13,454 bases of DNA from Nitrososphaerales archaeon (GTDB taxonomy: Archaea; Thermoproteota; Nitrososphaeria; Nitrososphaerales; Gagatemarchaeaceae). Under the pieces are notes generated by a model, which searched no databases, was not told the DNA's origin, and worked only from the letters and a program-made list of their open reading frames with translations. The position numbers were made by a program, and so were the translations under genes. The stretch is from assembly GCA_014874415.1 (NCBI GenBank), contig JACWAI010000076.1, positions 1-13,454 of the forward strand, in the 5' to 3' direction. This document shows, one piece after another, positions 38 through 13,454 of the stretch (its first letter is position 1; the number at the start of each line of letters is the position of its first letter).

Positions 38-1687
38 ATGAAAGTATCCGAGCTCCTGGTCCGCTCTCTGGAATCCTACGGCGTGACAAGGGCGTACGGA
101 CTGGTCGGGACTTCCGTGCTCGATCTCATGGACGCCCTGTCTTCAGGGAAGATCAGGTACGTCTCGACGCGACACGAGCAGGTCGCGGTAAGCATGGCCG
201 ATGCAGAAGGGAGAATGACCGGAAAACCGGGGGTCGCGATCGTCCACGGCGGCCCCGGTTTTCTGAACTCGATAGTCAGCCTGGCCAACGCCTGGAAGGA
301 CGGATCTCCGATGCTCCTGGTCGCCGGCGCGGTGAAGAGGAGGATGGTCGGGATGGACTCTTGGCTGGAAGTTCCCCAGTCGTCCATGGTGACGAGCATC
401 GTCAAGAAGGCCTGGCGGGTCGAGAGAGGGTCAGAAGCGGGAAAGACTTTTGCCGAAGCATACTCCCTTGCCGCGTCTTCGCCTTTCGGTCCTACTTTCG
501 TCGAGGTTCCCGAGGATGTCTGGAGCCAGGAGGCAGGAAAGGAAGTTGTCAGGGCATCGACAAAACCCGCGAAGCTGGCTACGGAAGAAGAGGTGAAGAG
601 GGTCGCGGACGCATTGATCGGGGCGAAGAGGCCCCTGATCGTGGTGGGAGGGGGGATCAATTCCCCTGCAGGAACGAAGGCCATGGAGGCGCTCCTCTCC
701 AAGGTCGAGGTGCCCGTTACGTCGACAGGGAACGGCAGGGGCGCTGTGCCGGAGGACAGACCGCTCGCGCTTGGCAGGATAGGATTCGGTGGCGGGAACA
801 GGGTCGCGGACAGTGCGCTGGCCCGAGCCGACCTTGTACTATGCATCGGATGCGGGTTGTCAGACGTATCGACCTACGGGTTCAATCTGACCCCCCGCGG
901 AGAGGTTATGGTAGCTGACCTGGATCCGCTCTGGAATAGAAAGCCAGTGCCGTACTCCGCGCACTTGGAGTGCGACGCCGCAGACTTCGCCCTGAGGGCA
1001 AGCCGTTACGTCGGCCCCAATGCAATGCATGAGGATTGGCGAGCGGTCATCGAGGTGGAAGCGAAAGGATGGCAAGCGCTGCTCAAGGAAGCGGAATCAC
1101 GGCGCAGGTCCAGCTTCGCAAACCCAGCTGCTTTCTTGCTGGCCCTAGACCGGGTGCTCCCCAGGGACGCCGTTCTTGCAGTGGGGCAAGGGCTCCACGT
1201 CTTGTACGCCTACGCTTTCATGAAAGTCAGGTCAAGCCGGTGCTTCCTCGCGGCCACGAACATGGGTTCGATGGGTTTCGTCTTCCCGGCAGCGCTTGGG
1301 GCCAAGATGGTGCTTCCGGAAAGAGAAGTGGTAGCGGTCATGGGGGACGGGGAGTTCATGATGACCATGCAGGACCTGGAGACGGCAGTCAGGGAGAAGA
1401 TAGGAGCCAAGATTGTCATTGTGAACGACAATTCATACAGGGTGCTCCTGATGCGGCAGAAGATACAGAAGATGGGAAGGGTATTCGGGACGACACACTC
1501 GAACCCGGACATCGCCAAGCTGGCGGAGGCATTCGGGACAGAAGGCATGGTCGTGGATTCGGATTCGAAGATGGGTGACGCGGTGGAGTTCCTGAAAAGG
1601 AAATCGGATAAACCCTTGCTCGTCGACCTCAGGGTGGACCCCGAGGACCTCCCGCCTCTGAACATCCAAGGCTCGCTGATGTTCTAG
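38..1687 (+). CDS. Thiamine-diphosphate-dependent enzyme, acetolactate synthase large subunit-like (three-domain TPP enzyme; exact substrate unknown)
   Basis: 549-aa ORF with an ATG start. The N-terminal pyrimidine-binding domain pattern is present (RHEQVAVSMADAEGRMTGKPGVAIVHGGPGFLNS). The C-terminal TPP-binding motif is GDGEF-x22-NDN (VMGDGEFMMTMQDLETAVREKIGAKIVIVNDNSY). Length and domain order are typical of the IlvB/Xsc/oxalyl-CoA decarboxylase superfamily. Confidence 0.85.
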   Translation: MKVSELLVRSLESYGVTRAYGLVGTSVLDLMDALSSGKIRYVSTRHEQVAVSMADAEGRMTGKPGVAIVHGGPGFLNSIVSLANAWKDGSPMLLVAGAVKRRMVGMDSWLEVPQSSMVTSIVKKAWRVERGSEAGKTFAEAYSLAASSPFGPTFVEVPEDVWSQEAGKEVVRASTKPAKLATEEEVKRVADALIGAKRPLIVVGGGINSPAGTKAMEALLSKVEVPVTSTGNGRGAVPEDRPLALGRIGFGGGNRVADSALARADLVLCIGCGLSDVSTYGFNLTPRGEVMVADLDPLWNRKPVPYSAHLECDAADFALRASRYVGPNAMHEDWRAVIEVEAKGWQALLKEAESRRRSSFANPAAFLLALDRVLPRDAVLAVGQGLHVLYAYAFMKVRSSRCFLAATNMGSMGFVFPAALGAKMVLPEREVVAVMGDGEFMMTMQDLETAVREKIGAKIVIVNDNSYRVLLMRQKIQKMGRVFGTTHSNPDIAKLAEAFGTEGMVVDSDSKMGDAVEFLKRKSDKPLLVDLRVDPEDLPPLNIQGSLMF

Positions 1688-1724
1688 AATCTGGTTGCGA
1701 GACGGCCTGCGCCCTCTTGAGAAC

Positions 1725-1731
1725 TTTTTAT
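1725..1731 (+). promoter_or_regulatory. TTTTTAT tract: either an oligo-T termination signal for the TPP-enzyme gene or a TATA box for the MBL gene
   Basis: It is the only AT-rich tract in the 187-nt gap. It lies 38 nt after the stop at 1687 and 111-144 nt upstream of the candidate MBL starts. Confidence 0.25.
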
Positions 1732-1874
1732 CGCCCTGCCGAGGGTCAAGGCCGAGGATATGTCGAAGTTCGGAGCAGCGCCACCGGCCCTGCTTGCTTT
1801 CGATTTCGGGGACCCGAGAGGGTCCGCATAGGAGTTCTCGTTTGTACGTCACCAAGGTCTCAGACCGGGTTTAC

Positions 1875-2744
1875 ATGCTGGACACCTACGCGCTCGGCGA
1901 GCCCAGGACAGTAGGAGCCTACCTGGTGAAGGGGCCGAAACCGACCCTGGTGGACTGCGGCTATGCCACCTCCTTTGAAAGCGTCCTCAAGGGACTGGCG
2001 GAAGCTGGCGTGATGCCATCCGACGTCAGGTACCTTATCCCGACGCACGTGCACCTAGACCACGCAGGGGCGGCGGGGCGCCTCCTCAGGGAAATGCCGA
2101 ACGCCGAGGTGATAGCCCACGAACGGGGCGTTCCTCACCTCATCGACCCCACGAGGCTGATAGAAAGCTCGACAAAGGTCTTCGGGGAGGCAATAATGGG
2201 TCTCTACGGCGCCCCCGAGCCGATCCCATCCGAAAGGATCACTCCAGTGGGAGAGGAGTCTCACCTTGACCTGGGGGACGGGCTTGGCATCACAATGATG
2301 CACACACCAGGACATGCACCCCATCAGATCTCAGTGTTGTTGGATGAGACGAAGGCGATGCTGACTGCAGACGCTGTTGGGATCGTCTACCCCGGGATGA
2401 AGGCCCTCATACCGACCACGCCTCCGCCAAGCTTCAACCCGGCCGAACTCGTGGCAACCATCAAATCAATCAGGCAGGCGAAGCCCACCGAACTCCTCGT
2501 CCCCCATTTTGGCGCGAGGGATGACGTGGACTGGGTCTTCGACCGGACGACCGAGTTGGTGCAGCGGTGGGTGGAACAGGTCAAGGCGCTCTGGAAGAGA
2601 AAGATGTCCCTGGATGACGCGACGGCTGAGATGGAGAAGGAAGTCTCGAAGGACGCCGGTACACACGAGCTCCCCATCTACGCCCAGATCTCTGTAAGAA
2701 CGTCCGTGATGGGCATAATGCACTACCTCGACAAGAACTTTTGA
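1875..2744 (+). CDS. MBL-fold metallo-hydrolase (beta-lactamase-like)
   Basis: HxHxDH zinc motif (THVHLDHAG), a downstream HTPGHAPH histidine motif, and the N-terminal pattern V-Y-M-L-D...AYLV typical of MBL proteins. The tracked ORF opens at 1695, but its first 60 codons are Arg/Ser/Pro/Cys-rich and unlike MBL N-termini. ATG 1875 is the likely start, with in-frame TTG 1842 as the alternative. Confidence 0.82.
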   Translation: MLDTYALGEPRTVGAYLVKGPKPTLVDCGYATSFESVLKGLAEAGVMPSDVRYLIPTHVHLDHAGAAGRLLREMPNAEVIAHERGVPHLIDPTRLIESSTKVFGEAIMGLYGAPEPIPSERITPVGEESHLDLGDGLGITMMHTPGHAPHQISVLLDETKAMLTADAVGIVYPGMKALIPTTPPPSFNPAELVATIKSIRQAKPTELLVPHFGARDDVDWVFDRTTELVQRWVEQVKALWKRKMSLDDATAEMEKEVSKDAGTHELPIYAQISVRTSVMGIMHYLDKNF

Positions 2745-2770
2745 ATCAGCACTCCCGCCCTCCCTGACCT

Positions 2771-3601
2771 GTGCCTCTGGTCTATGCATGCATAGCCCCT
2801 CACGGCGGGGAGATAGTACCGGAACTGGCGGGGAACAAGCTGCAACTCTTCTCTCCGACAAGGAAGGGGATGAGGGTGCTCGCCTCGGAGATGAAGGCCG
2901 CGAAGCCGGACACCATCGTGCTCGCGAGCCCCCATAACCTCAGGCTTCACAAGCACATCGGGGTGGTGACGGCCGAGTTCACGTCCGGGAGGGTCGTCGA
3001 AGGGAGGAGGGAGATCAGGATGAAAGCGAAGTGCGACGTCGACTTTTCTAAGAAACTGGCCGAAAAGGCGGAGGCGAAAGGGCTCCCAATCGTGGCGGCG
3101 AACTACGGCGTCTTCGAGGGTCCGCTTTCCGACATGGCCATGGATTGGGGGACCATGATACCGCTCTGGTTCCTCCTGAAGGGCGCCCGCCGGAAGAGCC
3201 GGGTGGCGATAGTGACTCCCTCCAGAGAAATCCCCCTGGGGCAGAACATCGAGTTCGGAAGGATAATCGCAGAAGTTGCCAATTCTGAGAAGAAGCGAAT
3301 CGCCTTCGTCGCGAGCTCGGATCAGGCGCACAGGCACAAGAAGAGCGGCCCTTACGGGTTCGACAAGAGAGCAGCGGAGTACGACCGAATTGTGGTGGAT
3401 GCGATCAAGAGGGACAGGCTCAAAGAGATTATGAAACTGGACCCCGACTTCGTCGAGGGCGCCCGGCCGGACAGCCTCTGGCAGATGGCCATGCTAGTGG
3501 GGGCCATTTCAGTCACTCCTATGAGGGGCGAGCTGGTGTCCTACCAGGTGCCTACCTACTACGGGATGCTTTGCGCCAGCTACCGCCCGGTGTCGAAGTA
3601 G
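2771..3601 (+). CDS. LigB-type (class III extradiol dioxygenase fold) family protein, function unknown
   Basis: 276-aa ORF with a GTG start. The N-terminus MPLVYACIAPHGGEIVPE matches the LigB-fold beta1-PH motif. Further His/Asp positions are present (ASPHN, DWGTMIPLW, SSDQAHRH). No partner subunit is visible. Confidence 0.65.
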   Translation: MPLVYACIAPHGGEIVPELAGNKLQLFSPTRKGMRVLASEMKAAKPDTIVLASPHNLRLHKHIGVVTAEFTSGRVVEGRREIRMKAKCDVDFSKKLAEKAEAKGLPIVAANYGVFEGPLSDMAMDWGTMIPLWFLLKGARRKSRVAIVTPSREIPLGQNIEFGRIIAEVANSEKKRIAFVASSDQAHRHKKSGPYGFDKRAAEYDRIVVDAIKRDRLKEIMKLDPDFVEGARPDSLWQMAMLVGAISVTPMRGELVSYQVPTYYGMLCASYRPVSK

Positions 3602-4364: not shown

Positions 4365-4775
4365 TCACGCGTGAAACCCCGGGATGAATGGGGTGACGAG
4401 CATGCTGAACAGCAAAAGAGTCAGCACCACCCCGGTAATCACAACGTAGAGCCTGTCCCTCTCGGCACCGAACAGGAGCACGGAGATCGTGACACGTGCG
4501 ACCGGGGTGGCGATAAGGAGTATGACCCCAAGCTCAATCCACGAGAACGGAGAATAAGAAACAAGGCCGTTGAAAAGCCCTCCAAGGCTCACGTCGAGGC
4601 CATCGTGGGGGACAGTATTCGGATTGTAATTGAGGAAGCCCGACGTATCGGATGACCCCTGTGAAATCGCAAGCCCGATCGTCCCAAGGATCACAACAGT
4701 TGCTGACAGGATGACTCCGTATCTGAGGACCTTGCCGATAATGACGTTCATCTCTTCAGGGTCTTTCAGGTTCAT
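4365..4775 (-). CDS. DUF1634-family small membrane protein (usual partner of TauE/DUF81 permeases)
   Basis: 136 aa beginning MNLKDPEEMNVIIGKVLRYGVILSATVVILG, with 3-4 hydrophobic segments. Its ATG (4775-4773) overlaps the TauE stop as ATGA. The upstream 113 codons of tracked ORF 4365..5114 are an Arg/Gly-rich shadow of the TauE gene in another frame. Confidence 0.75.
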   Translation of the reverse strand: MNLKDPEEMNVIIGKVLRYGVILSATVVILGTIGLAISQGSSDTSGFLNYNPNTVPHDGLDVSLGGLFNGLVSYSPFSWIELGVILLIATPVARVTISVLLFGAERDRLYVVITGVVLTLLLFSMLVTPFIPGFHA

Positions 4776-5614
4776 ACGGAGACCCCCAGGGAGCTCAGTA
4801 TCATCTCGACTGCAGCGACTGCCAGGACGACAGCGAATGCCTTCCTTATGGTGACATTGCGGGAACGGATGAGGAGGCGAGCCCCGATGGCCGCTCCTAT
4901 CAGTATGCCCAGGGCGACTGGCGCCACTATGAGAGGGTCTACGTCCCCCCTGGCAAAGTAGATCCCGGCGCTGGCGGCGGCCGTAACCCCGATCATGAAG
5001 TTGGAAGTCGTGGTAGAGACCTTCATAGGCAGCTTCATGGCCAGGTCCATCGAAAGGACCTTGAATGCGCCTCCCCCGATGCCGAGCAGCCCTGAGAGGA
5101 TCCCGGCGACCCATGTTCCCGCCAGTCCTTCCACAGGCTTCTCCGAGTTGTACTTCATCAGCGACCCGTCTTTCTCGACGTAGGTCCCGGTCAGGCCTAG
5201 CCGCTTTGAAAGCCCCTTAAGCTCAGGGTTCTTCGGTATCTCCTCGCCTATTTTCATCAGCGTTGGCACAAGGGTGGCGAGAAGGATTAAGCCGAAGATC
5301 AGTTCGAGGGACGCGGAGCCCGTGTATGCCGCCAGAGCAGCACCGATGATGGCGCCAGAAGTGCTGCCGAGCTCGAGGAACATGCCCACGCGGAGGTTCG
5401 TCACCTTATCTTTGACGTAGGTGGAGGCCGCCCCGCTGGACGTGCCGATTATCGCCACGATGCTCGCCCCGATGGCGAAGTGTATGTCGACCCCGAGAAG
5501 TATAGTGAGGACTGGGATGATGACGACCCCGCCTCCCAGGCCAACCAGCGAGCCGAAGACCCCAGCAAATATAGAAATGAGGAGCAAGAGCGTGATGAAC
5601 TCGACTACGAACAA
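4772..5614 (-). CDS. TauE/SafE (DUF81) family anion/sulfite-type exporter permease
   Basis: 280 aa and polytopic. The glycine-rich signature is duplicated (LVGLGGGVVIIP near the N-terminus, LLGIGGGAFKV in the second half). It starts at TTG, with no in-frame ATG upstream of the first TM segment. A TATA-like element lies 24 nt upstream. Confidence 0.85.
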   Translation of the reverse strand: MFVVEFITLLLLISIFAGVFGSLVGLGGGVVIIPVLTILLGVDIHFAIGASIVAIIGTSSGAASTYVKDKVTNLRVGMFLELGSTSGAIIGAALAAYTGSASLELIFGLILLATLVPTLMKIGEEIPKNPELKGLSKRLGLTGTYVEKDGSLMKYNSEKPVEGLAGTWVAGILSGLLGIGGGAFKVLSMDLAMKLPMKVSTTTSNFMIGVTAAASAGIYFARGDVDPLIVAPVALGILIGAAIGARLLIRSRNVTIRKAFAVVLAVAAVEMILSSLGVSV

Positions 5615-5638: not shown

Positions 5639-5645
5639 ATAATTA
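5639..5645 (-). promoter_or_regulatory. TATA-like box upstream of the TauE gene
   Basis: The minus strand reads CTAATTATGCAGG. The box ends 24 nt upstream of TTG 5614, as expected for a leaderless archaeal mRNA. Confidence 0.45.
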
Positions 5646-5679
5646 GATGTTGGCTATCGGACTGAATTTGACCCGACCG

Positions 5680-6870
5680 TCACACGGAGCCAAGGGCTGC
5701 AACTATCCTCTCATGGCTCTGCTGTATTCCTTCCACGCCTGTGTTCAGGATCATGCAGGGAACCTTCCAGTCCTCGAACATCGACCTGAAGAAAGTGGCC
5801 TGACGGGCGTTGTCAGGCTCGAGGAGGTATGGATTGTACCACGGCTCGTAGGATATCGACCCCCACTGTTCCTTTGGTCCCGCTCCGGGCAACACCATGT
5901 ACTCCCCCCTCTGCAGGATGCTGATCGACTGGTCCGGGGTGAGCTTTGCTTCCGCGGGGCTGTGGTCGTCCCTGCGGAGGAGCACCACCAGGTTGATGGG
6001 CACCTCGTCTACGACCTTTTCCGACCCGAGGATGTCGTCTCTCCTGACAAGCGCCCTGGAGTTCCCGAAGGAGTAATAGCACTGGTGCCTCCCTTCGTTG
6101 AATACGCATTTCTTGCCTGTAAGGGAACAGCCAACATCACCCTCGGTGTACTCGCAGTCTTCTTTCCGAGTGGTGACGTTCTCGTTCATTGACCTGTCGA
6201 ACACCTCGCCGAGCCAGCCCTGCTCCTTCTGCGATTCGGACCTCATGTAGAGGGACCTCTCCGGCTGTCTGGCCACCAGCGGAGAGCTCTTTGCCGTGGC
6301 ACCGGATGGGAAACGAACGTATGCCCAGTCATCCCCACATATCTTCCCATCGGGGTCCATGAAAATCTTGAACGACTGCGTGGTCTTGCCCGTGCCCGTG
6401 GGGGCGACGATTACCACCCCTTTGCCCTTGTAAAGAGCGGTGGCGCCGTGAATCGAAAGGGTGTTCGCCTCCTTTTCAAGGACGGCCGCTGCCATGCCAA
6501 GGGCCCAAGACTTGCACTGGCCATAATACTCCGTGTTGAGGAAGAGCGCTTCCCGGAGTTCGGGACAGTAATAGGCCGAGGGCTCGATGCCTTCGACTCC
6601 TATGGCGGAATAGATTCTCGCCTTGGGAGGAGCCAAAGCCTCCGCCTTCCACCAGTTGTGCGACCAGAAACCAGCCTGATGCGCGCTGTTGGTCGAAAGC
6701 TCGACGACGACCCCATTCAGGTCCGCCTTCATCGAGCCGAATCCTGATCCATCCAAGGCGGACTTCGCACGCGCAAGCAGGGGGAGGAACTCTGCCTTGG
6801 GGGTGTTCTTTTTCCCCTTCACGCGCGCCCTGGATTGTGTGACATAGTTGTTGAAGGGAGGAAGCGCCAA
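5680..6870 (-). CDS. Truncated ATP-PEP-carboxykinase-fold / HprK-like P-loop protein, function unknown
   Basis: 396 aa. The Walker A motif APTGTGKTT is verified at nt 6379-6405. Several blocks are colinear with E. coli PckA as I remember it:
- NTEYYGQCKS ~ GTWYGGEMKK
- SIHGATA ~ SMHCSAN
- DPDGKICGDDWAYV ~ DPKRRLIGDDEHGW
- MNENV ~ LLENV
- GNSRA ~ ENTRV
- LVVLLRRDDHSPAEAKLTPDQS ~ [23 protein letters not shown]
- MILNTGV ~ YLVNTGW
It starts at TTG, 27 nt downstream of a TTTTAA box. An in-frame ATG at codon 47 is an alternative start. Confidence 0.7.
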   Translation of the reverse strand: MALPPFNNYVTQSRARVKGKKNTPKAEFLPLLARAKSALDGSGFGSMKADLNGVVVELSTNSAHQAGFWSHNWWKAEALAPPKARIYSAIGVEGIEPSAYYCPELREALFLNTEYYGQCKSWALGMAAAVLEKEANTLSIHGATALYKGKGVVIVAPTGTGKTTQSFKIFMDPDGKICGDDWAYVRFPSGATAKSSPLVARQPERSLYMRSESQKEQGWLGEVFDRSMNENVTTRKEDCEYTEGDVGCSLTGKKCVFNEGRHQCYYSFGNSRALVRRDDILGSEKVVDEVPINLVVLLRRDDHSPAEAKLTPDQSISILQRGEYMVLPGAGPKEQWGSISYEPWYNPYLLEPDNARQATFFRSMFEDWKVPCMILNTGVEGIQQSHERIVAALGSV

Positions 6871-6897
6871 TCGCTGGTTTGGCGCAAGCCCGCACCC

Positions 6898-6903
6898 TTA
6901 AAA
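6898..6903 (-). promoter_or_regulatory. TATA-like box upstream of the PEPCK-fold gene
   Basis: The minus strand reads GGTTTTAAGGGTGCGGGCTT. The box ends 27 nt upstream of TTG 6870, a near-leaderless geometry. Confidence 0.45.
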
Positions 6904-6955
6904 CCGTTGGCGAGTCCGAACAGGGGTTATTCGATTGCCGATGGGGAGATGGCTT

Positions 6956-8629
6956 CTACCGCCTGATCATCGGCGCTTGCAAGGGAGCTCTCTCAAGGCC
7001 GTGACGCGATGCCCTCTCGAGGTCCAGGCCTCCCCTGAGGCAGCGGTTCTTTACCACGCGGAGCATGGCCCACGCACCGAGCGCCATCATTCCCCCGGTG
7101 ACGTACTTGGTCAAGGGGTTCTGCTCGGCTGAGGCGCTGGTGGCGTCCCTCCTGGCGATCTTGGCGAGATGCCTATAGGATGCGTAGTACACCGCCAACT
7201 GAGACCTGTTGAGCTTGACCGAGGAGAAGTCCCTGCTCTTGAGGAGCCCCAGGGGGACGTTCTGCATGGGGGTCACGGTGAACTCGAAGGGCCGGCCGTC
7301 GTCAAGGGCGGATGCGCTCATGCGGTTGATCAGGGCGACTGTCTCCCAGTTGTCCTCGGGCGTCTCCCCATCCTGCCCCACCTGCACGGTGAAAGCGGGG
7401 CGCCAATAGTATTTGTTCAGGACGTAGGTCCCTCGCCATACTATTTCCCCCCAGCTCCCGTCCGGCCCGACATGCAGCGGCAGGGTCTTGTTGGGCATGT
7501 GCACCGAAGCGAGCCGGTCGCTCCCGGTCTCGATTCCGATCTGAAGACCGATCCAGTTGTCCGGCCCCGCCCTCATGATTCTTGACAGCTTGCGGATGAA
7601 CTCTGGGTACGCGGCCGGTATCGAGATTCTTCCGTGGGTGGGATTGGTCTGGTCGACGCCGGAGGTCGCTATCACTGCCGAGAACAAGGCCGAGATGGCC
7701 TCCTGGTTAGGCTCGAAGTTCCTCCCGTGCTCGTAGGCGAATATCTCGTCGCTGTGCAGCCAGGCGTTGCCCATCCCTGCCCTTATGTTGACCTCGAGCT
7801 CCCGTCTCACCTTCTCCGGAGGATAGTATCGGAGTGGCCTCAAGGTGACTTCGCAGAAGTCGCACCCTATGCCGCACCCGCGCATGACCTCCACCATGCC
7901 CTTAACGGAAGGGTTGACTATGTCCGGGATGTCCTCGAGCTTGGGGAACTGTTTCGAGAACTGATACCGGCTGATGAACTTGGAGCTCGCCTTCCATTCT
8001 TTGTGGAACGACCCGTCGAAGGTCTGGAAGCCTCTGAAGAACTCGGTATTCTCCCCTCCGTCCTCGACCACGTAGCGGAAGAGGTCAGAGACTATGTCGT
8101 CGGCTTCGCCCTGGTAGGCGTAGTCGATCCTGTTCTTCTCGAGCACATCGGGGTGGACAGTCAGCTCCCAGACGCCAGGACCTCCTACGATGAGCTTCGC
8201 CTTCTTCCCCGCCCTCGCCCTGTTGACGCGGGCCAGGAGGGACTCGAACTCTCTCTGCACATAGGCGGGGGCGGTTGTGTCGAAGAATACGGCATAGGAC
8301 ATGGTGAGCGGCCCCAGGCCGAGGGGGTCCATGGTCGACACCCCGATAAGCTCTGTGTCGTCATCAACGAACTCTGCTATGTGGTCCTCGTGGGCCACCA
8401 CGACTTCGCCCCTTTCGTGACGCTTGAGGACTGATGCCTCCAGCTTCCTGATGGCGTAGGGGGCGAAGACCGCCTTCCCGTCTTCCGACGGCGGGGGAGG
8501 TCCCTTCAGGAAGCTGTAGATAGAGCCAGGGAGGGCGCTTGTCGGAGCGCTGGCGAGGAAGTCGAGGAGGGGGACGCTCCTGTAGTTGCGGGCCAGGGTG
8601 GTGTCTGAAACGAGCACGAATCTCGCCAT
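6956..8629 (-). CDS. Radical SAM enzyme with an N-terminal B12-binding-like (Rossmann) domain
   Basis: 557 aa with an ATG start. The canonical CX3CX2C motif is in VMRGCGIGCDFCEV (C252/C256/C259, verified at nt 7853-7876). The N-terminal about 170 aa show the pattern of cobalamin-binding-like domains of class B radical SAM proteins (ELIGVSTMDP..., KLIVGGPGVWEL). Only one further Cys occurs in the whole protein. Confidence 0.85.
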   Translation of the reverse strand: MARFVLVSDTTLARNYRSVPLLDFLASAPTSALPGSIYSFLKGPPPPSEDGKAVFAPYAIRKLEASVLKRHERGEVVVAHEDHIAEFVDDDTELIGVSTMDPLGLGPLTMSYAVFFDTTAPAYVQREFESLLARVNRARAGKKAKLIVGGPGVWELTVHPDVLEKNRIDYAYQGEADDIVSDLFRYVVEDGGENTEFFRGFQTFDGSFHKEWKASSKFISRYQFSKQFPKLEDIPDIVNPSVKGMVEVMRGCGIGCDFCEVTLRPLRYYPPEKVRRELEVNIRAGMGNAWLHSDEIFAYEHGRNFEPNQEAISALFSAVIATSGVDQTNPTHGRISIPAAYPEFIRKLSRIMRAGPDNWIGLQIGIETGSDRLASVHMPNKTLPLHVGPDGSWGEIVWRGTYVLNKYYWRPAFTVQVGQDGETPEDNWETVALINRMSASALDDGRPFEFTVTPMQNVPLGLLKSRDFSSVKLNRSQLAVYYASYRHLAKIARRDATSASAEQNPLTKYVTGGMMALGAWAMLRVVKNRCLRGGLDLERASRHGLERAPLQAPMIRR

Positions 8630-8660
8630 GTCGGGAGGGTCCCTGAATGAAAGCCGCGCC

Positions 8661-8668
8661 TTAAAAAA
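8661..8668 (-). promoter_or_regulatory. TATA-like box upstream of the radical SAM gene
   Basis: The minus strand reads GAATTTTTTAAGGCGCGG. The box ends 31 nt upstream of ATG 8629, which predicts a very short leader. It is the only AT-rich element in the 73-nt intergenic gap. Confidence 0.5.
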
Positions 8669-8702: not shown

Positions 8703-9359
8703 TTAGCCTTCGGCTATTTCAGCCAGGTTGCGGTTCGAGGCAGCAGAGAAGTCGTAGTCCCTGGCGTCGTATCCTGAACGACAATAATCATCTCTGTGCT
8801 TGATTAGCAGCCACGCCTCTTTGGTCTTTCCAAGTCCCTTTGTCCTGACAAGGGCGAAGGAGCCCTGTAGCTTCTTGCCGAAGAGGGCGAACTTCAGGTT
8901 CCCGCCTCTCAGTCCCTCCGAGGCTACCTCTTCAGCCTCGTCCCTGGAAGTCACCTGCTTCCTCGTCCCTTTGGCGATTTCTATCTCCGGGGTGTACTTC
9001 CCCTCGTCCCAGATCATCACGGTCCCGGCGCCGTAACCCTGCTCTATGTTGCCTTCGAACTTCCTGTATTCCAGGTCGTGCGGGCCGGTGGGCATGGCCA
9101 GCCTCCTCACCCCCGGGTCTAGGGTGGGTCCTTTCGGGACCGACCAAGAGGGCATGACGTCTCCTATCTCGAGCCTGAAGTCGTAGTAAAGCGCTGTCGC
9201 CCTGTGCTTATGGACCACGTAGGCCAAGAAGCCCGATTCCAAGACCGATGACGGCTGTCCACCCCGCTTTTTCGCCTTTGCGCCGCTTTTAACGCGAACC
9301 TCTAAAAAACCACTCCAACGCTTATATCGAAACCTGAACTCAAAACAGCGCGGGTTCAT
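8703..9359 (-). CDS. Stand-alone LigD-type 3'-phosphoesterase (PE) domain protein
   Basis: Colinear PE-domain motifs: YVVHKHRATALYYDFRLE, SWSVPKGP, GPHDLEYRKFEGNI, GYGAGTVMIWDEGKY, LKFALFGKKLQGSFALVR, WLLIKHRD. The start is uncertain. ATG 9359 gives 218 aa, but a TATA-like box lies inside that extension. In-frame TTG 9242 (179 aa, MESGFLAYVVHKH...) is a plausible true start. Confidence 0.85.
   Translation of the reverse strand: MNPRCFEFRFRYKRWSGFLEVRVKSGAKAKKRGGQPSSVLESGFLAYVVHKHRATALYYDFRLEIGDVMPSWSVPKGPTLDPGVRRLAMPTGPHDLEYRKFEGNIEQGYGAGTVMIWDEGKYTPEIEIAKGTRKQVTSRDEAEEVASEGLRGGNLKFALFGKKLQGSFALVRTKGLGKTKEAWLLIKHRDDYCRSGYDARDYDFSAASNRNLAEIAEG
9322..9327. promoter_or_regulatory. TATA-like element in the divergent LigD-PE / AsnRS-like region
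   Basis: CTTATATCGA on the plus strand reads TCGATATAAG on the minus strand. It is the only strongly AT-rich element between the two divergent conserved cores and could serve either or both directions. It lies inside the longest version of the PE ORF. Confidence 0.3.
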
Positions 9360-9494: not shown

Positions 9495-10403
9495 TTGCTG
9501 TCTGGAGCCAGGAGCTACTTCGAGGCGAACGGCTTCAGCGAGATACTCGTGCCTCACATCACCAGGGCGACAGGGGCGTGCGAGAACATCGCGACCATGT
9601 TCGAGGTCAACTTCTTCGACGAGCGAAGATATCTGGCCCAGACTGGACAGCTATATCTGGAGGTCCTGACACCGTATCTCGGCAAGGTCTGGGCCGCGGG
9701 CCCTAGCTTCAGGGCAGAGCCCGACGTCGACGACAGGCATCTGGTCGAGTTCACTTTGGTCGAGATCGAGTTCAAGGGCGGCTTCGACGAGCTCCTGGGG
9801 CACATCGAGGGGACCATAACCTCGATGGTGGACAAGGTGCTGAAGACGAGAGGAGAGGACCTCGAGCTGCTGAGGGTGGACAAGGAGAGGCTCAGGGAAG
9901 TCAGGGCTCCATTCAGGCGCATTACCTACACCGATGCCGTGGATGTGCTGGCGGGGTCCGGCGTCAAGTGGGGGGACGACCTGAAGAGCGCTCATGAGAA
10001 GCATCTGACCCACTACTACGGTGGCAAGCCACTCTTCATCACCCACTATCCAAAGGCGATCAAATTCTTCAACATGAAGGAGAACGACGCCAACCCCAAC
10101 ATCGTAGACAGCGCCGACCTCATACTCCCGTTCAGCGGGGAGGCGGTCGGGGCCGCGGAGAGGGAGCACCAGTACGACAGGCTGGTAAGCAGGCTCCTCG
10201 ACTCGTCGATGTACAGGCTGCTCAAGGAGAGGGGGGGGAGCCTGGAGGACTTCGCCTGGTTCCTCGACTTCTACAAGGAGAACGAGGGGTGCAAGCACTC
10301 GGGGTGCGGGATAGGAATGAACAGGGTGACGCAGTTCGTGCTGGGAAGCGCGGACATCAGGGCGACGACCACCTGGCCCATGAACAGGGAGTCGAACGTC
10401 TAG
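9495..10403 (+). CDS. Asparaginyl/aspartyl-tRNA synthetase-like class II catalytic core without an anticodon-binding domain (AsnA/AS-AR-like paralogue)
   Basis: Class II motifs are present: motif 1 region (FEANGFSEILVPHI), motif 2 (FRAEPDVDDRHLVEFTLVEIE), motif 3 (GCGIGMNRVTQFVLGSADIR). AsnRS-like blocks are also present (TGQLYLE, DLILPFSGEAVGAAERE, WFLDFYK..HSG). The tracked start is TTG 9495. The reading frame is open and homologous from at least about 9440 upstream, so the true 5' end is uncertain. Confidence 0.85.
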   Translation: MLSGARSYFEANGFSEILVPHITRATGACENIATMFEVNFFDERRYLAQTGQLYLEVLTPYLGKVWAAGPSFRAEPDVDDRHLVEFTLVEIEFKGGFDELLGHIEGTITSMVDKVLKTRGEDLELLRVDKERLREVRAPFRRITYTDAVDVLAGSGVKWGDDLKSAHEKHLTHYYGGKPLFITHYPKAIKFFNMKENDANPNIVDSADLILPFSGEAVGAAEREHQYDRLVSRLLDSSMYRLLKERGGSLEDFAWFLDFYKENEGCKHSGCGIGMNRVTQFVLGSADIRATTTWPMNRESNV

Positions 10404-11108: not shown

Positions 11109-11309
11109 ATGAAAATGGCCCAGGCAAGTCACGTATGTTCCGGCTTTCTCAAGGGGAAGGGCGCTCTTTGCGCCAATTGCGGCCACCTAAGGAGGCGTCA
11201 TGCAGAGGCCCCTCTGAATAGCGCAGGCTACTGCAGAGAATGCGTGAGGCTCTGGAGCAAGGATCAGGCGCTATGGGACTGGAGGCGCCGCCTTTACGAG
11301 GTCGTGTGA
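11109..11309 (+). CDS. Small hypothetical protein with a zinc-ribbon-like CxxC...CxxC arrangement
   Basis: 66 aa (64 aa from the second ATG at 11115). It contains CANC and CREC pairs 17 residues apart, plus one extra Cys and His residues. The GATATAA box at 11085-11091 lies 23 nt upstream of ATG 11115, a leaderless geometry. I recognise no homology. Confidence 0.4.
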
Positions 11310-11447
11310 CTCGGCAGCCGTGACTGGGGCACGCGTATAAGTGCTCCGTTCCGAAGGGCGAAAGTGTACTCTGCTGGACCGAACGTGACATTCTATGGGA
11401 TGCGGATAGAAGATTCTACCAAAGCGAATTAAGCTCGCTGACCCAAT

Positions 11448-11810
11448 TTGATACTGGGGGAATTGGCCCTTCATCTCCGGAAGCGTGTCGCACAAGTGGG
11501 CGTTATCGTTTTCATCGCTTCCATGTTGACTCCCGTCCTCCCTCTCCCGTTTGTCGTCCTAGGCGGAAGTGCAGGTCTCGGAATCGCAGGAAATCTCCTT
11601 CTGTTCCTCCTTAGCGGCATCGTCCTCCTAGTCGCTGCCCTCACTCCGGGGACAGAAGGCGAGACTTGGGGATCGATGTGGCCACTTGTGGGCTACGACA
11701 ACGCCATAGACTCCCTGTATGTCAGAGGCCCTTGGCGGCAACGGTTCGAGGAATTGGACGAGTTGGAGTCCGAGAGACGAATGATGACGGCGATGAGCGA
11801 GTGGTTCTAG
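11448..11810 (+). CDS. Small hypothetical membrane protein (two predicted TM helices)
   Basis: 120-aa ORF with a TTG start (alternative GTG 11496 or an internal ATG). It has two long hydrophobic stretches (VGVIVFIASMLTPVLPLPFVVLGG; LLLFLLSGIVLLVAAL) and an acidic C-terminal tail. No family is recognised. Confidence 0.4.
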   Translation: MILGELALHLRKRVAQVGVIVFIASMLTPVLPLPFVVLGGSAGLGIAGNLLLFLLSGIVLLVAALTPGTEGETWGSMWPLVGYDNAIDSLYVRGPWRQRFEELDELESERRMMTAMSEWF

Positions 11811-11830
11811 CTGTTGAACATATACAAATC

Positions 11831-11852
11831 TGCCCCGGCCGGGATTCGGACC
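11831..11852 (-). other. tRNA 3'-end-like remnant (possible att-site relic), not an intact tRNA
   Basis: The minus strand reads GGTCCGAATCCCGGCCGGGGCA. This matches the T-loop (TTCGAAT with one mismatch), a 5-nt T-stem 3' strand, a 7-nt acceptor 3' strand and discriminator A. The upstream sequence cannot form the matching T-stem (3 of 5 pairs) or the acceptor 5' strand (GCCCCGG is absent). Confidence 0.3.
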
Positions 11853-12015
11853 TGCAAGTGCGGGCTTAAGCACCTTCAAAATAGTTAGGCGATTGCTCGG
11901 GGGTCAGGCGTTCACCACCCGTCGGATTTTCAATAGTTTCGGACATCCCTGGCTATTCAAAGCCAAACCTCGCGTCGAGGTTAAGACCTTCCTCACAAGG
12001 CTAGAACTTGGTTTC

Positions 12016-12264
12016 TTGGCCATTGAATTCTCTGAGCACGCGGTTCAGAAGCTGAAGATACTTCGCAGTCATGGAGTGGAGGTAACGAAGAAGTTGATCG
12101 AGAATACGGTTAGCAAACCCGATAGGGTCGTTCGTGGGGTAGGAGGGAGGTTGATTGCTGAAAGGACCCTCGATCATGACCATGTCGTCAGGGTTGTGTT
12201 TATCAGGAAGGAGGAGAGTGTGCGAGTGATAACGATGTATCCCGCGAGGAGGGGGCGCTATTGA
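12016..12264 (+). CDS. DUF4258-like putative toxin of a DUF4258/DUF2283 pair
   Basis: The pattern IEFSEHAVQKLKILRSHGVEVTKKLIENTV...GRLIAERTLDHDHVVRVVFIRKEESVRVITMYP resembles DUF4258. The tracked ORF opens at TTG 11893. In-frame TTG 12016 gives an 82-aa product, typical for the family. The stop overlaps the start of the downstream gene. Confidence 0.6.
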   Translation: MAIEFSEHAVQKLKILRSHGVEVTKKLIENTVSKPDRVVRGVGGRLIAERTLDHDHVVRVVFIRKEESVRVITMYPARRGRY

Positions 12265-12452
12265 AGGTGACTTACGAGCCAGAGGACGATGTCCTGATGT
12301 ACGAGGTCAGCGACGAGCCCATCGACCATGCCGAGGAGATGGACTCGGTCATCATCCACTTCACCAAGGAGGACAAACCAGTGCTATTGGAAATATTGGA
12401 CGCGAGCAAGTTCCTTTCGAAGACCATCCAAGCGACCAAGAAAGCCCACTGA
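12261..12452 (+). CDS. DUF2283-family small protein (putative antitoxin partner)
   Basis: 63 aa. MKVTYEPEDDVLMYEVSDEPIDHAEEMDSVIIHFTKEDKPVLLEILDASKFL matches the DUF2283 pattern (MKI.YD.E.D.LYI.L...I..SEE...GVI.D.d..g..vGIEIL.ASK). The TTG start overlaps the upstream stop (TTGA). A GAGGAGGGGG purine tract lies 5-14 nt upstream. Confidence 0.72.
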   Translation: MKVTYEPEDDVLMYEVSDEPIDHAEEMDSVIIHFTKEDKPVLLEILDASKFLSKTIQATKKAH

Positions 12453-12554
12453 GCGGCTGGGACTCGGGCATGATTAATCGTGCCATCGGTGCGCAAAGAA
12501 AACGGGTATGTCGATGCCAACAGAATCGGCTCAAGACGGGCCTGACTCTGCCCT

Positions 12555-13454
12555 TCAAACGGGTAAGCGACCTTTCCAGCCAACTAGCCAGTACGCTGCC
12601 TCCGCAGCGAAGAAGCTCACAAATAGTAGAGACGTCATCAGAATGGAAGAAACGAGAACGTCCTCGCGGGAGTAGAAGAAGCTTGTCTGAATTCCCAGGC
12701 CGAACACAATCACAGCCGCCAACGACAGCCAGCCAATCCAAGTGAGAACTGTTGCAACTAGCGGCACTTTGAGGAGCTCCGATGCTCCCTGCGCTCCGAG
12801 CCTGAGCCAGAGGACAAACCAAGTCACTAGGCCCGGGAGAGCGAGAAAGTACACAATGTAGGGTGGCCCGTAGAGCTCAAAACGAATTGCGAACGGAATG
12901 AACTGAAACACCGGGATGTACAAGAACATCAGCACGAATTCGAGGCCCCCATACCCAAGGGATTGGCGGACGGACAGGCGGCCGTTCCCTTTTTGGCTAC
13001 CGGGCAAGACCAAAGCCGCTCCAAAGACCACAAACATTACCGTGATTATTCCCGATAAGAAGGCAAGGTCGTTGGCCGTCTGGAAGTCTAGTGAGAGCGG
13101 AATCAGTGACAGGACAAACGACGGGATTGAGAGGACGAAGAGTAGTTTCCCCAAACCCACGCGGCCAACATGAAGCGTTGCAACTCCATTCTGAGTAGGC
13201 GGTGGCTGGAACTTCTCCATGACCTGGGTTGCAAGCCTGCCCTTCTCTGTGAGCGTGTACCGCCCACTTTCATCCTTTGAGACCAGATCTCCAAGATGTC
13301 TTAGATGGTAATTCAGCTTACCAGTATGTTCAATCTCCAAAAGGCCCAAGATTTCGACATATGCCAACGGTCCTCTCTCGCCCAGAGCTGAAAGAATCCT
13401 TCTCCTCGTGGGGTCCTTCAATATGCCGTGAAGCGAACCGAGGTCTGCTGCCAT
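12555..13454 (-). CDS. ArsR-type winged-helix DNA-binding domain fused to a polytopic membrane domain
   Basis: The N-terminal 85 aa match the ArsR/SmtB-like wHTH (ILKDPTRRRILSALGERGPLAYVEILGLLEIEHTGKLNYHLRHLGDLVSKDESGRYTLTEKG). About 6-7 hydrophobic helices follow. The ATG lies exactly at the window edge, so the ORF could extend further, although the N-terminus looks natural. Confidence 0.8.
   Translation of the reverse strand: MAADLGSLHGILKDPTRRRILSALGERGPLAYVEILGLLEIEHTGKLNYHLRHLGDLVSKDESGRYTLTEKGRLATQVMEKFQPPPTQNGVATLHVGRVGLGKLLFVLSIPSFVLSLIPLSLDFQTANDLAFLSGIITVMFVVFGAALVLPGSQKGNGRLSVRQSLGYGGLEFVLMFLYIPVFQFIPFAIRFELYGPPYIVYFLALPGLVTWFVLWLRLGAQGASELLKVPLVATVLTWIGWLSLAAVIVFGLGIQTSFFYSREDVLVSSILMTSLLFVSFFAAEAAYWLVGWKGRLPV

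Follow-up and report, generated by a model that had tools for sequence, protein, structure and literature searches.

Adjacent genes for a probable B12-type radical-SAM enzyme and a PEPCK-fold protein in a Nitrososphaerales archaeon: probably two independent accessory genes, not a functional module

Results

The two genes at the locus

The window analysed here is a stretch of 13,454 nucleotides (nt) of DNA from an uncultured soil archaeon of the Nitrososphaerales (contig JACWAI010000076.1, G+C content about 60%). On its minus strand lie two genes, referred to below as A and B. Gene B (6956-8629, ATG start, 557 amino acids (aa)) encodes a protein of the radical S-adenosylmethionine (SAM) type with an N-terminal Rossmann domain that resembles cobalamin-binding domains. 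Gene A (5680-6870, TTG start, 396 aa) encodes a P-loop protein with the fold of phosphoenolpyruvate (PEP) carboxykinase (PEPCK). The genes are arranged head-to-tail with a gap of 85 nt, and a sequence-only reading of this DNA had proposed that they form a two-enzyme module. Our results indicate that they are probably two independent, separately transcribed accessory genes and no functional module, the product of B being a predicted SAM-cleaving enzyme and that of A a predicted phosphotransferase.

A and B are genuine genes, not chance open reading frames (ORFs), because both have many database relatives of conserved length: a search of a protein collection gave 653 relatives of A and 1528 of B at E <= 1e-3. 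The top matches are 66-89% identical and nearly all of the named ones come from uncultured Nitrososphaerota (Thaumarchaeota); an identical A protein is present in two Logan assemblies of public sequencing runs. ORF calls place, size and orient the two genes as the sequence-only reading had done. The span it gave for the pair, 5680-8668, is right as to the gene calls, but its end lies 39 nt beyond the ATG of B, inside the B promoter. No tRNA or Rfam match was found in the window, and defence-system models gave no meaningful match for A or B.

Conservation of the pair

Two neighbourhood surveys together covered about 150 related loci; fetched loci carry L-numbers. The A-centred survey used one genome per GTDB species (146 relatives, 80 loci fetched) and counted a locus if at least 1.9 kb was available upstream of A. 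Gene B adjoins A in 10 of 32 Nitrososphaerota loci, in 0 of 13 from Bathyarchaeia and in 0 of 17 of Thermoplasmata type, that is, in 10/62 in all. The B-centred survey drew on metagenome contigs (236 relatives, 80 loci fetched), and among the 71 loci with downstream room A adjoins B in 23 and is absent from that place in 48. The pair is thus not kept adjacent in related genomes, an outcome that the sequence-only reading had itself named as one that would refute its proposal, and the two genes are lost independently; the two-enzyme module is not supported.

According to a neighbour-joining tree, adjacency is limited to one clade of B proteins that are at least 71% identical to the window copy. 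The pattern on the B tree takes at least six changes of state, a single gain and five or more losses of A. Gene order in this clade forms a fixed frame: LigD 3'-phosphoesterase (LigD-PE), B, optionally A, TauE, DUF1634, HAD, LigB-like, metallo-beta-lactamase-fold (MBL) and acetolactate-synthase-like (ALS-like) genes. At B identities of 75-85%, loci with this frame either contain A or lack it cleanly. Scars of the missing genes are visible in several loci. L091 retains the A promoter region and the last ~15 codons of A, ending in GHERIISALESPRRA before the stop codon, and L142 retains the first ~12 codons (...PPLYNCVTQS). Conversely, in L019 and L026 an intact A stands behind a frameshifted remnant of the B C-terminus (a B pseudogene), and in L005, L010 and L053 LigD-PE lies immediately upstream of A. 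Since remnants of A or of B occur beside an intact partner, the loss of either gene can leave the other in place. One metagenome-assembled genome (MAG), YP3.bin16, holds two A loci, one with intact B upstream (L003) and one with the decayed C-terminal B remnant (L019).

ORF clustering of 63 loci found no gene family common to the surroundings of A across phyla. In soil Bathyarchaeia DNA ligase and primase genes lie downstream of A, and in Thermoplasmata the neighbours of A are variable. Tight coupling of A to another gene was seen only in soil Bathyarchaeia, where an arginase-family gene and the start of A share 4 nt (L030 9105-9998 and 15 other loci); these loci all belong to a single group of closely related MAGs. 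The B relatives of Thermoplasmata and of marine ammonia oxidisers have housekeeping genes as neighbours, in contexts unrelated to that of the window.

Predicted promoters

B, A and the TauE gene downstream of A each have a TATA-like box of their own, 27-35 nt upstream of the start codon. The box of B, TTTTTTAA (8661-8668, minus strand), lies ~35 nt upstream of the ATG and marks the putative B promoter. That of A, TTTTAAG (6897-6903, minus strand), lies ~30 nt upstream of the TTG within the promoter CAACGGTTTTAAG, which is conserved irrespective of whether B lies upstream. The TauE box is predicted at 5639-5646 on the minus strand, and the TauE promoter ACATCTAAGTATGGA is conserved whether A or B precedes it. 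Because each gene has its own conserved promoter, the sequences argue for three separate transcription units.

A further conserved element lies ~20 nt upstream of the A TATA box. In the window it is a degenerate copy of the 17-nt sequence TTCGACATTCGAATAAC (6926-6942, minus strand) with two TTCGA half-sites. The element is conserved upstream of A in L001-L027 and L081-L149, whatever gene lies upstream, and of its 28 matches in ~2 Mb of fetched loci, 22 are situated a short way upstream of A. We take it to be a likely A-specific operator.

Protein A is a compact relative of PEPCK

The identification of A as a truncated PEPCK-fold P-loop protein has stood up well. Residues 104-181 score 25.5 bits against PF01293 (cut-off 26.5), and residues 269-388 match the PEPCK subfamily model NF006821 with E 3.5e-15, a match found in 16/16 family members. 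All curated PEPCK cut-offs are nevertheless missed (NF006821 55.6 vs 369; TIGR00224 12.9 vs 590). As a single sequence A retrieved one PEPCK from PDB at E 0.024, and the profile, built on a shallow alignment, was weaker. The AlphaFold model (predicted local distance difference test score, pLDDT, 62; predicted template-modelling score, pTM, 0.67; N-terminal half good) matches 1j3b in Foldseek searches against PDB, which were used for all fold comparisons, with E 2.7e-12 and template-modelling (TM) score 0.59 over ~385 of 396 columns. There are 85 fold matches at E <= 1e-3, and the top 50 are all PEPCKs, the ATP-dependent enzymes ahead of the GTP-dependent ones.

In PEPCK, K213, H232 and D269 (E. 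coli numbering) are the Mn2+ ligands, and R65 and R333 bind oxaloacetate or PEP. Profile alignment sets residues 20-381 of A against E. coli Pck 94-445, and residue equivalences were drawn from alignments to the T. cruzi and E. coli enzymes together with conservation in the A family. Y207, G209 and K212 of Pck correspond to Y115, G117 and K120 of A. They lie in the signature NTEYYGQCKSW (6505-6537, minus strand), equivalent to the Y207-G209-K212-K213 motif of PEPCK. H232 corresponds to H141, the D268/D269 pair to D180/D181, and the P-loop S250-T256 (kinase-1a) to residues 157-164, the invariant PTGTGKTT (6379-6402, minus strand). R272, in a GNSR motif, aligns with R333. Two positions differ: S121, an invariant Ser, stands where Pck has the Mn ligand K213, and C119, an invariant Cys, where it has M211. 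The metal ligands H141 and D181 are kept, so the K213/H232/D269 triad is incomplete. The alignment begins at Pck 94, so that R65 has no aligned counterpart; the invariant R16 and K21 at the N-terminus of A might stand in for it. At the other end, A stops ~15 residues past the NTG motif (equivalent to Pck 437-445), and the adenine segment (~R449-T455) is without counterpart.

A Cys-rich loop, C239-x8-C248-x6-C255-x8-C264 (6079-6156, minus strand), is inserted just ahead of R272 in a region of low pLDDT. The loop of Nitrososphaerota and Bathyarchaeia contains four Cys, that of most Thermoplasmata three, and L075 has no such loop. As one homologue lacks it, the loop is probably a structural metal site.

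The 79 full-length A homologues, from three archaeal phyla, are at least 97% conserved at 97 positions. Highly conserved are the entire NTEYYGQCKSWALG motif, QPE, LLRR and PGAGPxExWG; PTGTGKTT and GDDW are invariant. Identity is 47-57% across Nitrososphaerota, Bathyarchaeia and Thermoplasmata (homologues L029-L080), which suggests horizontal spread among soil and groundwater archaea, with mis-binning also possible; some A loci bear bacterial MAG labels. A literature search for a PEPCK-like archaeal family gave nothing relevant.

Compared with PckA (E. coli Pck; T. thermophilus 1J3B), A shares the two-domain fold over nearly its whole length and the catalytic features GTGKTT P-loop, GDD motif, H232, Y207, K212 and NxR (R333). 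In contrast to PckA (~530 aa), it is 396 aa long and leaves Pck 1-93, with R65, and 446-540, with the adenine pocket, unmatched. It also differs in having Ser at the K213 and Cys at the M211 position and the Cys-rich loop before R272, in its patchy distribution, in being dispensable and in scoring beneath every curated cut-off. Since PEPCK scores are below the cut-offs and scores to the kinases ScmC and HprK-related proteins are weak, A is by its sequence a distinct, uncharacterised PEPCK-fold family outside PEPCK proper.

Protein B is a radical-SAM protein of probable B12 type

The CxxxCxxC motif of B (C252/C256/C259, CGIGCDFC; codons at 7853-7876, minus strand) is predicted from the translation to bind the radical-SAM [4Fe-4S] cluster and is invariant in 16/16 homologues. 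B passes the cut-off of PF04055 (Radical_SAM) marginally, with 29.8 bits against 29.5. For the B12-binding family PF02310 there are sub-threshold matches in 15/16 members (best E 5e-4). Together with the fold matches described below, these findings agree with the B12-type radical-SAM architecture that had been proposed for B. Among the 16 homologues C530 is the sole further invariant Cys, and no auxiliary-cluster (SPASM/twitch) cysteine motif is conserved. As only C530 is otherwise conserved, SPASM/twitch clusters and the N-terminal cluster of MiaB are excluded.

The AlphaFold model of B (pLDDT 66, pTM 0.72) finds its best fold matches, over both domains, in MgmA (9ccb, E 1.8e-8) and MiaB (7MJV, E ~7e-6), and at E <= 1e-3 only MgmA and MiaB/MtaB were matched in PDB. 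B as a single sequence has no match among PDB sequences; its profile retrieves only MgmA and MiaB, these two at E ~0.003-0.006, and TM_1862, and no class B methylases of the MoeK5 or TokK type. MgmA is the B12-dependent glutamine C-methylase of methyl-coenzyme M reductase. Like B, MgmA and MiaB have an N-terminal Rossmann-type domain followed by the radical-SAM barrel, but identity is just 12-13% and the TM-score 0.40-0.45. Unlike MiaB, B is without the three N-terminal cluster cysteines and the TRAM domain and has ~100 additional C-terminal helical residues. Two assignments were rejected: MiaB/RimO methylthiotransferase (no conserved Cys in residues 1-250; TIGR00089 22 bits vs cut-off 251), and Tes/GDGT-MAS, which was matched in PDB neither by the single sequence nor by profile or fold.

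B has 503 relatives among 1.8 billion cluster representatives. A protein of marine ammonia oxidisers (Nitrosopelagicus) is 41% identical, and its 90%-identity cluster has 1978 members. Identity is 42% to Calditenuaceae, 43% to Thermoplasmata and 36% to Methanopyrus kandleri, and ~30-37% to relatives in Bathyarchaeia, Geothermarchaeota and one Asgard archaeon. In 30 cluster look-ups these relatives carried solely the generic name "B12-binding domain-containing radical SAM protein". In the hot-spring contigs L150, L151, L157, L158 and L159 the B-like radical-SAM gene has a paralogue in tandem on its upstream side (28% identical in L158). L150 and L151 also have a MarR regulator upstream, and in L152 the gene after the B homologue encodes an MMPL-family transporter.

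Other genes in the window

The slot that holds B and A has constant edges. Upstream is a stand-alone LigD 3'-phosphoesterase (8703-9359, minus strand). The downstream edge of the conserved frame is a TauE/SafE-family anion exporter (4772-5614, minus strand), which stays when A is deleted. Directly after TauE comes a DUF1634 membrane protein (4365-4772, minus strand; E 2.8e-27), which accompanies TauE in nearly all Nitrososphaerota loci and appears in the mechanical ORF list as a 249-aa ORF overlapping TauE. On the plus strand, 38-3601 holds a conserved divergent block of an ALS-like thiamine-pyrophosphate (TPP) enzyme, an MBL-fold protein and a LigB/Memo-like protein; it adjoins the HAD, DUF1634 and TauE genes. 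The ALS-like TPP enzyme also gives sub-cut-off matches to sulfoacetaldehyde acetyltransferase models.

Beyond LigD-PE, a gene at 9495-10403 (plus strand, 302 aa) encodes a class II aminoacyl-tRNA-synthetase core that matches positions 143-445 of the asparaginyl-tRNA synthetase profile and has no anticodon-binding domain. By sequence its product looks less like a tRNA ligase than like an archaeal enzyme of the asparagine synthetase A type. Between a DUF1801-like gene and a helix-turn-helix (HTH)/DUF7347 membrane protein (12555-13454) lies a stretch, ~11200-12550, in which G+C falls to ~0.54 and only short ORFs without family matches are present.

Discussion

Why A and B stand side by side

The best reading of the surveys is that A and B were brought together a single time, in the ancestor of one clade of peat and soil Nitrososphaerota that do not oxidise ammonia. 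Their adjacency is a lineage-specific accident of gene order, which each gene has left independently of the other. Two other explanations treat the neighbourhood as meaningful. According to one of them, A and B form a facultative module in this clade only, in which B modifies a substrate that A then phosphorylates, or the reverse. The genes are indeed co-directional and 60-180 nt apart, and adjacency is kept in 10 species-level and 23 metagenome loci at B identities of 71-90%. Yet A or B is lost singly with its partner intact, the promoters of A and B are separate and conserved, no third conserved partner turned up, and the two genes are never adjacent outside the clade, though both families occur in Thermoplasmata and Bathyarchaeia. 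The independent losses have already largely refuted this explanation, which we regard as quite improbable. The other explanation is that the pair belongs to a gene cluster for a ribosomally synthesised and post-translationally modified peptide (RiPP), of the SynChlorMet or HprK-related-kinase type, where the radical-SAM enzyme and the kinase mature a small peptide. The sequence-only reading had raised this lead. ScmC and the HprK-related kinases A and B (TIGR04249, TIGR04352, TIGR04355; PF27840) do resemble A in having a P-loop of the PEPCK/HprK fold and a radical-SAM neighbour. A has a weak precomputed match to PF27840 'ScmC', and ScmC and HprK_rel_A/B score E 0.006-0.2 around its P-loop. These scores are not significant, by contrast to the PEPCK match at E 3.5e-15, and the closest folds of A are exclusively PEPCKs. 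Moreover, the known cassettes have a SPASM-type radical-SAM enzyme, PqqD and a precursor peptide, whereas the A-B locus has none of these: B is without SPASM or twitch cysteines, a family scan found no PqqD gene in the window, and the intergenic gaps of 65-85 nt cannot house a precursor gene, in line with the earlier remark that no precursor-like small ORF is present. Nor does a conserved small ORF or a PqqD-like gene accompany the pair in any surveyed locus. As the A-B pair is not conserved either, we give the peptide explanation hardly any credence.

It is important to note the points that weigh against our interpretation of A and B as independent genes and of what each of them does. The surveys saw ~10 kb on each side of the locus, so a partner encoded elsewhere in the genome would have been out of view. 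The same peat studies supplied many of the metagenome loci, and these do not count as independent samples. The promoters that separate the transcription units are predicted, and the AlphaFold models, built on shallow alignments, are of moderate quality (pLDDT 62 for A and 66 for B). Adjacency has endured down to ~71% identity of B, and some selective or regulatory benefit may lie behind this. As for the function of B, no lipid gene adjoins it, and its proposed place in a group of lipid-modifying enzymes, discussed below, draws on published descriptions of that group.

Possible function of A

Read as an independent gene, A would encode a soluble phosphotransferase that works alone and is built on the two-domain PEPCK fold. 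By alignment, it retains the P-loop, two of the metal ligands (His and Asp) and those Tyr, Lys and Arg residues by which PEPCK holds oxaloacetate or PEP. Missing from it are the R65 loop, the adenine pocket and the Lys metal ligand, whose place is taken by a Ser beside an invariant Cys. Such an enzyme would most likely carry out phosphoryl transfer in which a nucleotide or another phosphate donor is one partner and an acid resembling oxaloacetate or enolpyruvate the other; this acid may differ from oxaloacetate itself.

A minimal yet genuine ATP-dependent PEPCK serving gluconeogenesis would account for the PEPCK fold over the whole length of A and for the retained equivalents of Y207, K212, H232, the P-loop, D268/D269 and R333. 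It fits badly with the missed cut-offs of PF01293 and TIGR00224, with an invariant Ser in place of the Mn ligand K213 and with an alignment in which the R65 loop and the adenine-binding C-terminus are unmatched. A is also dispensable among close relatives, which is unexpected for a core gluconeogenic enzyme, and we consider this possibility unlikely. Less probable still is that A acts with the TauE exporter, the DUF1634 protein and the HAD phosphatase, their substrate being an acid of three or four carbons that is sulfonated or otherwise anionic, e.g. of the sulfopyruvate type. According to ORF clustering, a TauE-type gene lies near A in 26 of the 32 Nitrososphaerota loci with A called, including TauE proteins just 40-45% identical (L004, L009, L021, L025, L027), and PEPCKs bind beta-sulfopyruvate as an oxaloacetate analogue (PDB 4ox2). 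On the other hand, TauE, DUF1634 and HAD remain where A is deleted, TauE has its own conserved promoter, no TauE was found near A in the surveyed Bathyarchaeia or Thermoplasmata, and the chemistry is purely speculative. We tentatively put forward a third view, that A is not a PEPCK and founds a new enzyme type. This would be a small phosphotransferase of two domains, without an adenine pocket and with a metal site formed by Cys, His and Asp in place of Lys, His and Asp. It would act on an oxaloacetate-like acid other than oxaloacetate, possibly a sulfonated one in connection with TauE, and be shared horizontally by soil and peat archaea of three phyla. We hold this view to be rather less likely than not.

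Possible function of B

B would cleave SAM reductively at its CxxxCxxC [4Fe-4S] cluster, yielding a 5'-deoxyadenosyl radical that takes a hydrogen atom from an unactivated carbon with the help of the N-terminal cobalamin-type domain. Archaeal enzymes of this kind that act on lipid tails are the ring synthases GrsA and GrsB, the methylases Gmm/Hgm and Cgm, and the desaturase Ted (bioRxiv 10.1101/2025.10.20.683597; PMC8473941; bioRxiv 10.1101/2023.10.20.563219). Grs, Gmm, Hgm, Cgm and Ted are, like B, archaeal proteins 500-580 aa long in which a radical-SAM core is combined with a B12-type domain at the N-terminus. Judged by these descriptions, B is probably a member of the group, and its substrate would most likely be the isoprenoid tail of a glycerol dialkyl glycerol tetraether (GDGT) lipid, as for Grs and its methylase and desaturase relatives.

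Within the group B seems to lean to the Grs type, a methylase being less likely, because the B profile retrieves none of the MoeK5/TokK-like class B methylases in PDB. Nitrososphaeria are reported to carry 1-6 homologues of grs, and Cgm homologues to be present in Nitrososphaerota that do not oxidise ammonia (bioRxiv 10.1101/2025.10.20.683597; bioRxiv 10.1101/2022.08.15.504015; PMC8473941; bioRxiv 10.1101/2023.10.20.563219). B-type genes, like the multi-copy grs homologues described for thermophilic Nitrososphaeria (bioRxiv 10.1101/2022.08.15.504015), are present in several copies and sometimes in tandem. Since a Grs homologue and Hgm are both present in M. kandleri (PMC8473941; bioRxiv 10.1101/2023.10.20.563219), the M. 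kandleri relative of B is ambiguous as a guide to Grs placement.

Significance of the locus

As a conserved unit, the proposed pathway that would combine a B12-type radical-SAM enzyme and a PEPCK-like kinase does not exist, and effort to find it is not warranted. The locus is instead a tidy natural case of repeated independent gene loss inside a fixed gene frame. With B, the B12-type radical-SAM enzymes that may shape tetraether membrane lipids gain a well-populated clade from Nitrososphaerota; this would bear on lipid-based climate proxies only if a lipid activity were demonstrated. The remaining interest of the locus, low to moderate, rests on A as a strongly conserved, uncharacterised family. 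This tightly conserved branch of the PEPCK fold, with its invariant NTEYYGQCKSWALG active-site motif, offers a clean target to those who look for new enzymes in uncultured soil archaea.

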